From: Clostridiales bacterium UBA1742
Lineage (GTDB): Bacteria; Bacillota; Clostridia; TANB77; CAG-508
Assembly (NCBI GenBank): GCA_002314935.1
Contig: DCHW01000064.1
Location: 3,022-67,021 of the forward strand
Direction: 5' to 3'
Length of the DNA: 64,000 nucleotides
Shown here: positions 46,439-49,383 of the stretch, piece after piece
Numbering within the stretch: the stretch's first letter is position 1
Layout of the letters: each line of letters begins with the position of its first letter
Notes under the pieces: model-generated
What the model was told of the DNA's origin: nothing
The model's database searches: none
The model's input: the letters and a program-made list of their open reading frames with translations, nothing else
Made by a program: the position numbers and the translations under genes

Positions 46439-47020
46439 ATGTTACAAGTAAGCAGAGATGGTAATTTGAAAATACCTAAAAAAATAGAAGATATAAAAGA
46501 AAATATCAATACAATCGATGATAAAATTGCTGTTAAACAAGCAATAGCAACAGCGAACAATAAGAAAATAAATAATAAAAAAATAAAAGAAAGTGTTGAA
46601 CAAGATGCAGAGTTAGAGATGGTTAGTAAAATTCCATATAATGCAAATGATTTGGTTGTAATTACTATTGTAAAAAAACTTACTGCATATACAATAGCAG
46701 TTACAGAAAAATCGCCTAAAAAATTCAGAGGTGTATTTGTTAATAGAATGCAAAATTATTGTTTAGATACATTAGAAAATCTATTGAAAGCAAATTTTAC
46801 AAGAATGGATGCAATAGACAAGAAAAAAATAAGAGAAGAATTGCAAAAGGATGCAATAGTGAATTTGAAATTACTGGGGTATGTTTCTATGGTAGCAGAA
46901 AATTCAGGCTGTATATTAAACAAACAATACAAACAGATTTCCTTACAATTATCAGAGGCTATAAATTTGATAGCAGCATGGAAAAAGAGTGATGATGAAA
47001 GATGGAAAAATAGGAATTAG
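46439..47020 (+). CDS. DGR accessory protein candidate (Avd-like, C-terminal about 130 aa helical bundle)
   Basis: Lies immediately upstream of the template repeat and RT. The C-terminal region is basic and helical, with size and position matching an Avd. Confidence 0.35.
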   Translation: MLQVSRDGNLKIPKKIEDIKENINTIDDKIAVKQAIATANNKKINNKKIKESVEQDAELEMVSKIPYNANDLVVITIVKKLTAYTIAVTEKSPKKFRGVFVNRMQNYCLDTLENLLKANFTRMDAIDKKKIREELQKDAIVNLKLLGYVSMVAENSGCILNKQYKQISLQLSEAINLIAAWKKSDDERWKNRN

Positions 47021-47092
47021 GATTTTAAACCGAAAGGTTTTTAATTAAGAGAAAAATTTTAATTGGTCGTTTTTTTTACGCCCCTTTATTAT

Positions 47093-47176
47093 ATGACGCG
47101 CGCGTGGTCGATAATAATGGTAATAGGAATTACAACAATGTAAATAAACGCAATGGTGGGGCTCGCCCAGATTTAC
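47093..47176 (+). repeat. DGR template repeat (TR)
   Basis: 84 nt homologous to 48733-48817. Every substitution between the copies falls on an adenine of this copy. In frame it reads GAT AAT AAT GGT AAT AGG AAT TAC AAC AAT GTA AAT AAA CGC AAT (AAY-rich). It ends with GC-rich ATGGTGGGGCTCGCCCAG. Confidence 0.85.
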
Positions 47177-47391
47177 TTTTAAGATTTATAAAATTAAATC
47201 GAAAAAAATCAGAGAAATATATTTTAGGTAAAATATATCAGTATTTAAAGTAAAGGAATTTTTCTCTTTTCTAACCGCTATAAAAGTGCGGTGGAAGAAT
47301 AAATGAGTACCTACACAAGCAACGAATAGTTAATCTATTTTTTGCAAGTTATAAGAGGTATTCTTTTTTTGTATATAAAAGGAGTTTTGAA

Positions 47392-48411
47392 ATGAAGATA
47401 GAGGAAATTTTTACATTTGAAAATTTATATAAAGCATATAAAGATTGTAGAAAGTCAAAACAACATAAAGGCGAAGTTATAAGATTTGAGGTGGATTTAT
47501 CCAGAAATATTAGTAATTTACAAAAAGAGTTATTAAGTAAAAAATATAAATTAAGTAAATACAAAAAATTTTTAATATATGAACCAAAGGAAAGAGTTAT
47601 TGAGGCATTACCATTTAAAGACAGAGTAGTAATTAAATGCTTTTGTGAAGCAACTTTAAGAGATAAAATTGAGAATAAACTAATATATGATAATGCTGCT
47701 TGTAGAAAAAATAAAGGGACAGATTTTGCTATAAAAAGATTAGAAAAATTCTTAAAATATGAGTTTGGAATACAAAAAAATAATGATTTTTATTTTTTGA
47801 AATGTGATATAAGAAAATATTTTCAGAGTATAAATCATGAAATACTACTAGGATTATTAAAAAAAATTAATTTTTCGACAGATGAAATGTGGTTAATTGA
47901 AAAGTTAATAAAAGAACAACCTAATAATGCAGAAATTGGATTGCCACTTGGAAATCAATCTAGTCAATGGTTTGCATTATTTTATTTGAATGAAATAGAC
48001 AGATTGATTAAAGAAAAATTAAGAATCAAGGGGTATATTAGATATATGGATGATATGATATTGATACATAATGACAAAAAATATTTGCAAAAATGCTTAC
48101 TTGAAATAAGAAAAGCATGTAAGGAAAAATTGAATCTTGAATTAAACGACAAAACACAAATTGGAAAAGTAAAAAATGGAATTGATTTTTTAGGATATAG
48201 ACATATTTTAAATTCTAGAGGAGGAATAATAAGAAAATTAAGAGTATCTTCAAAACAGAGAATGAAAAAACATTTAAAAATAATGAAAAAATTAAGGATA
48301 AAAAATATAATTGATGATGAATATATATATGTTAGAAAGAATGCTTTTTATAATCATTTAAAGAATACAAGTGAAAGTTATAAGCTAAAAAAAGAGGTAT
48401 ATCCTTTTTGA
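47392..48411 (+). CDS. DGR reverse transcriptase
   Basis: 339 aa. RT motifs DIRKYFQSINHE, the DGR-diagnostic LPLGNQSSQ (GxxxSQ in place of QGxxxSP), YMDDMILI and FLGYR. Confidence 0.85.
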   Translation: MKIEEIFTFENLYKAYKDCRKSKQHKGEVIRFEVDLSRNISNLQKELLSKKYKLSKYKKFLIYEPKERVIEALPFKDRVVIKCFCEATLRDKIENKLIYDNAACRKNKGTDFAIKRLEKFLKYEFGIQKNNDFYFLKCDIRKYFQSINHEILLGLLKKINFSTDEMWLIEKLIKEQPNNAEIGLPLGNQSSQWFALFYLNEIDRLIKEKLRIKGYIRYMDDMILIHNDKKYLQKCLLEIRKACKEKLNLELNDKTQIGKVKNGIDFLGYRHILNSRGGIIRKLRVSSKQRMKKHLKIMKKLRIKNIIDDEYIYVRKNAFYNHLKNTSESYKLKKEVYPF

Positions 48412-48524
48412 AAAAAATTTGAAAAAAATTTTACGAATTTGTTGAAAAATTTTTATTTTTTTGATTTAATAATAGTGGATTATTTTAAATGTTATACGTA
48501 AAGGTATAAATTGGAGGTAAACAA

Positions 48525-48836
48525 ATGAGTAATTATACATTTCCAACTCAAGAACAATTTTTTGAAGACAGAGAAATGCTTGAAGTTATAAAGAAAAGAG
48601 GAACTAAAGCAGCAATTACAGATTTTTCTATTTTATTAGGAGGATATGTAAATGATTATTATCATATAGATGGAGATAGAACTCTTGCAGGTAGAACAGG
48701 CTACTATTGGACAAGATCAGATGATGGAGATAATGACGCGCGCGTGGTCGCTAATGATGGTAGTAGGGATTACTACGATGTTGAATATGCGCGATGGTGG
48801 GGCTCGCCCAGCTTTACCGTTCTCATCAATCGATAA
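48525..48836 (+). CDS. DGR target gene as observed (103 codons, VR at 3' end); native product is probably longer (see 48670..49383)
   Basis: Contains the variable repeat 48733-48817 with a YYWTRS segment just upstream and a stop 17 nt after the VR. However, the TR and VR lengths differ by 1 nt. Confidence 0.5.
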   Translation: MSNYTFPTQEQFFEDREMLEVIKKRGTKAAITDFSILLGGYVNDYYHIDGDRTLAGRTGYYWTRSDDGDNDARVVANDGSRDYYDVEYARWWGSPSFTVLINR

Positions 48837-49383
48837 AATCCCCACGAACGGAGTGAGTGGTAAGCGTGCAACAGATGGAGTATTAGAAGTTGAATATGGA
48901 TTTTATCCACAAAGTGCAGTTTCAAGAGAAATGCAACAAGAATTAGAACGTCAATTCAACAATGGAAGATTAAATAGAACTGGTAATGGATATACAACAG
49001 ATTCAAGAAGATATAATGCTTATGATGAAAAATTTGAAGCAAAAAGACATGAGGAATTTGAATATCGAGGTAAAAGATATGTAAGAGTTGAAGCTAATTC
49101 TGATTTTGGAGGAGGAACATTTACTCTTTCAAATGGAGAAGGATATAGAGACGGGGATAATGTTTGGGTTGAAGTACAACCAATAAAATGGTTGGTAAGT
49201 GAAAGTGATAAATTGATGCTTGCAGAAAAATTAGTTTTTGCAGGAGTTCAATTCAAACATGAAAGAGATTATCATACTGAAGATTTTGGAAAAACAGATA
49301 TAAAAAAATTTATAGATGATTGTTGGTCAAAAGATATTGAACAAGTAAGAAGTAAACGGAAAAACTATGGAAACTGGTATTGA
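48670..49383 (+). CDS. ORF downstream of and overlapping the VR; probably the 3' continuation of the DGR target (fused product about 286 aa if the 1-nt indel in the VR is removed)
   Basis: No convincing RBS or start after 48836. The frame matches the AAY-codon frame of the TR downstream of the indel. It overlaps the AAA ATPase start by 17 nt. Confidence 0.4.
   Translation: MEIELLQVEQATIGQDQMMEIMTRAWSLMMVVGITTMLNMRDGGARPALPFSSIDKIPTNGVSGKRATDGVLEVEYGFYPQSAVSREMQQELERQFNNGRLNRTGNGYTTDSRRYNAYDEKFEAKRHEEFEYRGKRYVRVEANSDFGGGTFTLSNGEGYRDGDNVWVEVQPIKWLVSESDKLMLAEKLVFAGVQFKHERDYHTEDFGKTDIKKFIDDCWSKDIEQVRSKRKNYGNWY
48733..48817 (+). repeat. DGR variable repeat (VR) with IMH-like GC-rich 3' end
   Basis: 10 substitutions relative to the TR, all at TR adenines (to C/G/T), plus a 1-nt indel near 48781. 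Identity is lost just downstream of CGCCCAG(C)TTTAC. Confidence 0.85.

Follow-up and report, generated by a model that had tools for sequence, protein, structure and literature searches.

A diversity-generating retroelement on a clostridial integrative conjugative element probably diversifies the N-terminal domain of an intracellular, AAA+-linked protein

Targeted protein hypervariation in prokaryotes is, to our knowledge, the work of diversity-generating retroelements (DGRs) alone, and the DGR targets studied so far are nearly all surface or phage-tail proteins. We analysed a 64,000-nt stretch of DNA from Clostridiales bacterium UBA1742 (GCA_002314935.1, contig DCHW01000064.1, positions 3,022–67,021 of the forward strand), hereafter the window, to which all coordinates refer. 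We are confident that its segment 46439–49383 is a canonical DGR, made up of an accessory gene (avd), a template repeat (TR), a structured spacer RNA and a reverse transcriptase (RT), which is carried on an integrative conjugative element (ICE) and diversifies a target linked to an AAA+ ATPase. The cassette itself is of the standard kind; what is unusual is the intracellular target, the position of the variable repeat (VR) near the N-terminus of that target and the link to an AAA+ ATPase and a vWA protein.

The DGR of Bordetella phage BPP-1 (mtd-avd-TR-brt) shares with the window an avd-TR-spacer-RT core, an RT with an IGxxxSQ-type motif and YMDD, adenine-specific changes from TR to VR, a GC-rich 3′ block with TR/VR differences just past it, and an RNA in which the spacer (Sp) forms one duplex with the TR and another with a segment upstream of it. 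The two systems differ in that the window target lies downstream of the RT whereas that of BPP-1 lies upstream, and in that the VR, which in BPP-1 occupies the C-terminus of a phage tail-fibre protein, is found close to the N-terminus of a cytoplasmic one. Moreover, the window has no GC-rich hairpin after the VR, its carrier is an ICE and not a phage, and its Avd has an N-terminal extension of ~70 aa. Among catalogued systems, avd-TR-RT is the commonest DGR core (architecture B), while an N-terminal VR occurs in only 3 of 372 DGRs (Wu et al. 2018, PMC5758913). A first-pass annotation of the window had described its gene order as a less common arrangement; this fails for the core and stands for the downstream target, to which the near-N-terminal VR has to be added as a second unusual feature. 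An ICE-borne DGR is known from Legionella pneumophila, where it acts on LdtA, a member of category ‘d’ with its CLec2/DUF1566/Fib_succ_major targets, and NTPase-linked targets make up categories b7–b11 and g1 and include UVR4/Midasin of the candidate phyla radiation (CPR; Wu et al. 2018, PMC5758913). Finally, DGR-diversified lectin domains have been tied to MoxR-vWA pairs in the ‘VMAP ternary’ conflict systems of cyanobacteria and gammaproteobacteria (Kaur et al. 2020, PMC7159879).

The core evidence for a DGR in the window is a pair of direct repeats, both of 44% GC in a sequence of 26% GC (the features of the cassette and of the operon behind it all lie on the + strand). The TR occupies 47093–47176 (84 nt) and the VR 48733–48817, as the first-pass annotation had delimited them. 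It had counted 10 differences between the copies, all at adenines of the upstream one; gapped comparison gives 11 substitutions and one extra nucleotide in the VR within 48781–48783, so that the count has to be raised and an insertion that had been left uninterpreted added, while the adenine-only pattern stands. The TR base is A at 11 of 11 substitutions, and with 28 adenines per 84 nt the probability that all 11 differences hit A is 1.2e-6. Ten of the changes are of the random A-to-N type, and the VR carries in addition a fixed C at 48812. Tallied over 34 TR–VR pairs of related loci, 333 of 350 mismatches likewise sit at TR adenines. Read in the target frame, the TR gives D N N G N R N Y N N V N K R N, in agreement with the run of AAT and AAC codons (N N G N R N Y N N V N K R N) that had been seen in the upstream copy, and the TR/VR changes fall at codon positions 1 and 2 of AAY-type codons. 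Its mutagenised core (47111–47153) holds 23 adenines, and simple arithmetic from the TR gives a capacity of 4^23 DNA variants and ~2.5e12 peptides. One TR codon, AAA at 47147–47149, can unlike the AAY codons be turned by adenine mutagenesis into TAA, TAG or TGA in the VR.

Both copies end in a GC-rich block, GGTGGGGCTCGCCCAG, that resembles an initiation of mutagenic homing (IMH) element and in the VR spans 48796–48811, inside the coding sequence, where it encodes the GGARP of a conserved GGARPALPF. The block is identical in TR and VR and occurs only these 2 times in the 64-kb window, against 0 expected; a remote second target within the window was rejected on this ground. Homology extends 6 nt beyond GGTGGGGCTCGCCCAG before the copies diverge; the first-pass annotation had placed the divergence after the shared GC-rich end. 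Directly after CCCAG, the TR has A47171 and the VR C48812, and the related loci without exception have A in the TR and C in the VR at this position. This is a family-wide fixed difference and no product of random mutagenesis; C48812 yields GCT, the Ala of the invariant GGARPALPF. The pentamer that follows this position in relatives is also fixed and free of mutagenesis, TTCAC in the TR and TTTAC in the VR. The 3′ boundary is thus of the IMH/IMH* type, a shared GC-rich block followed by fixed TR/VR differences, and these differences would set the directionality of the exchange.

The RT between the repeats (47392–48411, 339 aa) carries LGNQSSQ, an [ILV]GxxxSQ motif, within LPLGNQSSQ, as well as YMDD, just as the first reading of its translation had it. 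Its assignment to the DGR type rather than to group II introns or retrons was equally sound: the best PDB match is 8ub7_A (E 4.3e-38), compared with E 8e-13 for the best group II intron RT. We take 8ub7_A to be the Bordetella enzyme bRT because its residue numbering (D138, D215, D216) fits the bRT of bioRxiv 10.1101/2023.10.23.563531. The Pfam content of the open reading frame (ORF) is RVT_1 only, with no maturase, HNH or other nuclease domain. Given that the closest RT in IMG/VR is only 42% identical, the RT family is one of cellular or conjugative elements rather than of phages.

The basic helical ORF that precedes the TR, which had been proposed to be Avd, proved to be just that. It encodes 193 aa (46439–47020), of which residues ~70–190 form the Avd four-helix-bundle region, and it matches phrog_3206, ‘Avd protein of DGR’, over residues 70–189 (E 3.5e-15); Pfam bAvd (E 1.2e-4) and NCBIfam DivGenRetAVD (E 3e-6) match over the full model, below their cutoffs. 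A profile built from the Avd alignment did not retrieve Bordetella Avd from the PDB sequences, and the identification therefore rests on the PHROG, Pfam and NCBIfam profiles. The N-terminal extension of ~70 aa is conserved in relatives, and a full-length avd is kept directly upstream of the TR in ~30 loci. Immediately upstream of avd lies a receiver-only response regulator (45882–46355; Spo0A-like, with no output domain), which is syntenic in L005–L011 at 45–48% identity and may regulate the cassette.

We aligned the region from the avd stop to the RT for 17–18 loci and compared its helices with slid partners and with 500 shuffles. The helices were paired in 96.5–98% of cells, against 41–60% in the slid controls, and 17–18 pairs had changed on both sides, against 1–6; none of the 500 shuffles reached this level. 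In the spacer between avd and TR, a GNRA-tetraloop hairpin (AAACC-GAAA-GGTTT, 47027–47040) shows compensatory changes in four of its five pairs across 17 loci. It is followed by AAGAGAAAAATT (47047–47058), the upstream strand of a 12-bp long-range duplex whose other strand is spacer 47257–47268. In most loci the two strands are exactly complementary over 12 nt; L020, L022–L026 and L031 have compensatory variants, and the duplex is 96.6% paired with four pairs changed on both sides. The 3′ flank of the TR (CC-AGA-TTTACTTT, 47167–47179), which contains the fixed A47171, pairs through 47167–47168 and 47172–47179 with the primer-like spacer strand 47247–47256 in a template:primer-type duplex that is 99–100% paired; here the window has a private compensatory T-A pair where its relatives have C-G. 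The spacer RNA between TR and RT (47177–47391) is conserved and covarying in 17–18 loci, and contains conserved, covarying hairpins at 47217–47238 and 47269–47296 together with one at 47183–47200 that was judged by eye from the alignment and stands outside the counted helices.

In the cryo-EM structure of the Bordetella DGR RNA, a TR:Sp template:primer duplex is directly followed by a duplex between an upstream segment and Sp, the ‘cPRT Stop’, and then by a stem-loop and adenosines (bioRxiv 10.1101/2023.10.23.563531). The predicted arrangement of the window's TR–spacer RNA is that of the Bordetella RNA, with 47047–47058/47257–47268 as the counterpart of its avd:Sp ‘cPRT Stop’, and the priming nucleotide would lie near 47256–47257. 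The fixed TR/VR differences would never be written into the VR because they lie inside the predicted primer duplex, 3′ of the start of copying. An Rfam search of 45800–49600 at E<=1 returned only a chance snoRNA match, from which it follows that this DGR RNA has no curated Rfam family. A promoter scan was uninformative in sequence of 26% GC.

A scan of one genome per species gave 260 relatives of the RT. Some 40 of them, at 55–77% identity, come from low-GC gut metagenome-assembled genomes (MAGs), whose labels are Clostridium, Clostridia, Bacilli, Tenericutes and, in a single group, Alphaproteobacteria. Some 35 loci keep the order avd-TR-RT-target-AAA-(156 aa)-(130 aa)-vWA, down to 55% RT identity; in them the TR precedes the RT start by ~300 nt and the VR begins ~1.3 kb after that start, ~330 nt past the RT stop. 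The most divergent members (L031–L036; RT identity 55–56%, same gene order) come from the MAGs labelled Alphaproteobacteria, and these labels may reflect horizontal spread or problems of binning or labelling. Five to six loci (L007, L008, L011, L012, L019, L037) have a second target-AAA copy ~3.1 kb downstream with a VR of its own. Since these second VRs depart from the single TR only at adenines, one DGR appears to serve two targets there.

The intact homologue of the target, P0001 (285 aa), allowed diversification to be followed among near-identical proteins. Its 90%-identity cluster has 22 members from different assemblies, and we read 14 full-length ones. Outside the VR they are identical or differ by single residues; each VR is different, with four to eight different residues at each of 11 VR columns. 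The 11 variable columns correspond to the TR codons GAT, AAT, AAT, AAT, AAT, TAC, AAC, AAT, AAT, AAA and AAT. The invariant ones belong to GGT, GTA and CGC, whose codon positions 1–2 are free of adenine, and also to AGG despite its first-position adenine. These comparisons of sequences show actual diversification in the family at the population level.

The target is best described from P0001, in which the VR makes up residues ~70–98 of 285. Its translation shows no signal peptide or hydrophobic N-terminus, which, together with the fusion of the target to an AAA+ ATPase in relatives, supports the earlier proposal that the protein is intracellular. An AF2 model of P0001 (pLDDT 91.5) has an N-terminal alpha/beta domain (residues 1–100) that ends in the VR, followed by a beta-rich domain. 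A C-type-lectin fold, suggested as something to look for in the target, is plausible but weakly supported. A few members of the target family give weak matches to DUF6273 or Fib_succ_major, and matches of the DUF1566/Fib_succ_major type are weak too. Full-length P0001 has no Pfam domain at E<=0.01, the target-family profile has no match among PDB sequences, and Foldseek of the model against PDB and BFVD found nothing significant, the top BFVD match being a DUF6273 protein.

The target gene opens an operon. Its stop overlaps the start of the next gene by 17 nt (49367–49383; ATG...TGA), and this gene (49367–50758) encodes an AAA+ ATPase of the MoxR/dynein-related kind (Pfam AAA_5, 23.7 bits against a cutoff of 22). 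The link to the ATPase stands on much firmer ground than the fold of the target. In most relatives, among them L007, L008, L011, L029, L037 and L038, target and ATPase form one ORF of ~740 aa. In the clade of the window a conserved frameshift separates the two, and all targets of the split form end in ...RSKRKNYGNWY. Two small conserved genes (156 aa and 130 aa, 50758–51625), syntenic in related loci and in operons that lack a DGR, are followed by a 519-aa protein (51647–53206), a putative DUF2201_N metallopeptidase (Pfam E 9e-21) that is syntenic in the family. Its translation contains HEFMH and a C-terminal DVSGS of the MIDAS type, and we call it vWA-like on the latter motif, despite which it has no Pfam VWA match. 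PDB sequence searches with the AAA+ and vWA proteins gave no match, and we found no relevant literature on DUF2201.

The same five genes (target-like/AAA_5/(156 aa)/130 aa/DUF2201_N) occur in L083–L088 with no RT or avd nearby, and the target family comprises 2,418 cluster representatives at 50% identity. Because the operon occurs without a DGR and the target family is so large, we conclude that the DGR has become attached to a widespread, uncharacterised AAA+/vWA operon. Some of the DGR-less operons adjoin GmrSD and a deaminase, others serine recombinases and ParE. P0024, a protein of a DGR-less operon, is present with identical sequence in 139 blocks of the collection and may hold a ‘frozen’ VR.

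Set beside the described systems, the locus resembles the Legionella LdtA DGR in being ICE-borne and in the weak DUF1566/Fib_succ_major-type lectin matches of its target. LdtA, however, is a surface lipoprotein with a C-terminal VR, whereas in the window target, which has no signal peptide, the VR lies at residues ~70–98 of 285 and the protein is coupled, or in relatives fused, to an AAA+ ATPase. With the NTPase-linked targets it shares a P-loop/AAA NTPase in one polypeptide with a DGR-diversified domain, but there the VR is downstream of or C-terminal to the NTPase, and in the family of the window the VR domain is N-terminal. In the VMAP ternary systems (PMC7159879) it is the vWA protein to which the diversified FGS domain is fused, and VMAP is present as a third component. 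The diversified domain of the window is instead fused or coupled to the AAA+ protein, the vWA protein has a DUF2201_N HExxH domain, and the whole is carried by an ICE in low-GC gut bacteria. Searches of the operon with Pfam, NCBIfam and PADLOC models found no third component of a MoxR-vWA system (VMAP, iSTAND, FtsH or propeller). Judged by its domains, the AAA+/vWA module thus resembles the MoxR-vWA ternary systems without belonging to their described subtypes.

As assembled, the target gene is broken. The +1 insertion in the VR shifts the frame, and the ORF stops 17 codons past the extra base; the target is for this reason split into a stub of 103 aa (48525–48836; putative lectin-like domain and VR, premature stop at 48834–48836) and a C-terminal remainder in the shifted frame (48784–49383; from GGARPALPF through the beta-rich domain, stop at 49381–49383). 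Removal of one base at 48781–48783 restores a 285-aa protein collinear with P0001, which is 98% identical to the portion of the target past the frameshift. The description of the DGR as complete hence holds for its parts, every one of which was found, and not for the target ORF. Programmed frameshifting as the cause of the split was rejected, as the additional base is missing from intact homologues and falls within the hypervariable stretch. Frameshifting TR/VR indels occur across the DGR tree (Wu et al. 2018, PMC5758913), and VR indels recur in this family: L013 has a +1 at the same place as the window (7341–7414), VR1 of L012 has 14 additional nt (2704–2790), P0121 has one extra in-frame VR codon and P0124 is truncated in the VR.

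We considered three other accounts of these observations. If the repeats were an ordinary duplication and the RT an unrelated group II intron, retron or defence RT, the sub-threshold matches of the RT to group II, Drt3a, retron and PADLOC RT models would be expected, and a true group II intron does lie at 30577–32493 of the same element. Yet 11 of 11 substitutions fall at the adenines of one copy (P 1e-6) in a pattern repeated in ~35 loci, the RT matches bRT 25 orders of magnitude better than it matches group II RTs and lacks maturase and HNH domains, Avd is present, and the Rfam search of 45800–49600 found no intron or retron RNA. Adenine bias and family-wide conservation together refute this account, whose probability we put close to nil. 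The other two accounts concern the insertion. DGR VRs are often polymorphic in populations and assemblers can make a chimeric consensus of them, so that the extra base might be an artefact of assembly or consensus while most cells hold an intact target, and odd indels are indeed found in two of the ~30 MAG-derived VRs. Against this, the insertion lies outside a homopolymer (GTTGAAT). Over 9,020 nt, insertion included, the independent Logan assembly of run SRR5323857 shows 0 differences from the window, and gene call P0133 (201 aa; NCBI, JGI and Logan) corresponds to the C-terminal target fragment with the same frameshift, although these may share reads with the deposited assembly. An artefact strikes us as somewhat unlikely.

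That the DGR is a decaying relic in this strain, with its target inactivated and the cassette no longer homing, would agree with the premature stop at 48834–48836, with the recovery of the same sequence in a second assembly and with the VR indels of L012 and L013. However, the RT and avd ORFs are intact and keep their catalytic motifs, all RNA helices are intact, and the private compensatory T-A pair speaks for selection that still acts on the RNA. As the VR is perfect at both of its homology ends, homing could still overwrite the lesion, and in other samples, elements whose targets hardly differ outside the VR have VRs that are diverse and in frame. We therefore consider decay unlikely. Several points nevertheless weigh against an active DGR with the role proposed below. 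The frameshifted target, present in the Logan assembly as well, means that the system may be non-functional in the strain at present, and the evidence for ongoing diversification is from the family, not from reads of this strain. PADLOC has no defence-system model for the target, the AAA protein, the small ORFs or the vWA protein, and the role of the module is read from its architecture only. A GC-rich DNA hairpin of the Bordetella type was not found after the VR (48790–48885 folded as DNA, z −0.09 against shuffles). A hairpin or cruciform downstream of the VR is not universal among DGRs, and its lack does not exclude membership.

We accordingly retain a canonical DGR that diversifies an AAA+-linked target as the reading of the locus, and propose that it would work as follows. 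The RNA from the 3′ end of avd through the TR and the spacer would fold such that 47167–47179 pairs with spacer 47247–47256 and the segment 35–46 nt upstream of the TR (47047–47058) pairs with spacer 47257–47268. The RT-Avd complex would copy the TR to cDNA, misincorporating opposite adenines, and the cDNA would replace the VR (48733–48811) in the gene directly downstream, with the GC-rich ends serving as homology. Replacement would randomise 11 codons of a small N-terminal domain, lectin-like (DUF6273/Fib_succ_major-like), in a cytoplasmic protein; if homing took place again, the +1 insertion in the VR would be overwritten. The target would be the substrate- or ligand-binding part of the AAA+ ATPase, to which it is fused in most relatives and translationally coupled in the window, and it shares an operon with the metallopeptidase-like/vWA protein. 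The components, the adenine bias, the RNA pairings, the variation of VRs across the population and the fusion and synteny are shown by the sequences; the priming chemistry, the current activity in the strain and the biological role of the module we infer. Most likely, it is an intracellular, ATP-driven recognition module whose specificity is re-tuned by the element, for example against proteins of phages, rival elements or host defence. More specifically, and as a tentative suggestion that we hold with less than even confidence, the hypervariable lectin-like N-terminus might select substrates for the MoxR-like AAA+ ATPase, which together with the metallopeptidase-vWA protein would trap, remodel or destroy proteins that belong to phages, to rival elements or to the defence systems of the recipient.

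The element that hosts the DGR extends over ~11.5–58.6 kb of the window, with approximate ends. Its location inside a conjugative element, already asserted on first inspection, is supported by a MobA/VirD2 relaxase (40792–42435), DUF87/VirB4-like ORFs (27888–30081), ArdA (starting at 35361) and two large serine recombinases (55544–58633); by this gene content it classes as an ICE. It also carries an NlpC/P60 protein, a C5 methylase and a 1,584-aa protein with 12 SpaA/prealbumin-like repeats (15959–20713), which is likely a surface adhesin of the conjugative element. The chromosomal sugar-metabolism genes galK, phosphorylase and pyk lie to its left at 5–11 kb, and megablast of 46400–49400 against PLSDB plasmids gave no match. 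The VirB4/DUF87-like ORFs are directly followed by a complete group II intron (30577–32493), with an RT-maturase-HNH ORF (30577–32370) and an Rfam Intron_gpII domain V/VI match (32395–32493); it supplies the element with a second, unrelated RT and may interrupt a transfer gene. Outside the conjugative element, a T-box leader (Rfam RF00230, 94.6 bits) lies at 61355–61572 on the + strand.

These observations bear on what DGRs diversify. In ~35 gut-MAG loci, mutagenesis is aimed at the N-terminal domain of a cytoplasmic AAA+ module on conjugative elements, and they provide a compact, sequence-defined system for asking what purpose an intracellular diversified binder serves. The RNA adds an independent, covariation-supported example of the template:primer and stop duplexes whose structure in the Bordetella DGR was determined recently. 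A cost of the mechanism is seen in the frameshifted VR: the element can disable the very gene that it targets, although such a lesion should be reversible when homing next occurs. If the hypervariable domain does select substrates for the ATPase, the family would represent, in Firmicutes and on ICEs, an equivalent of the MoxR-vWA conflict systems linked to DGRs, with its domains wired differently, and would amount to an adaptive-immunity-like generator of specificity that operates at the protein level inside the cell.

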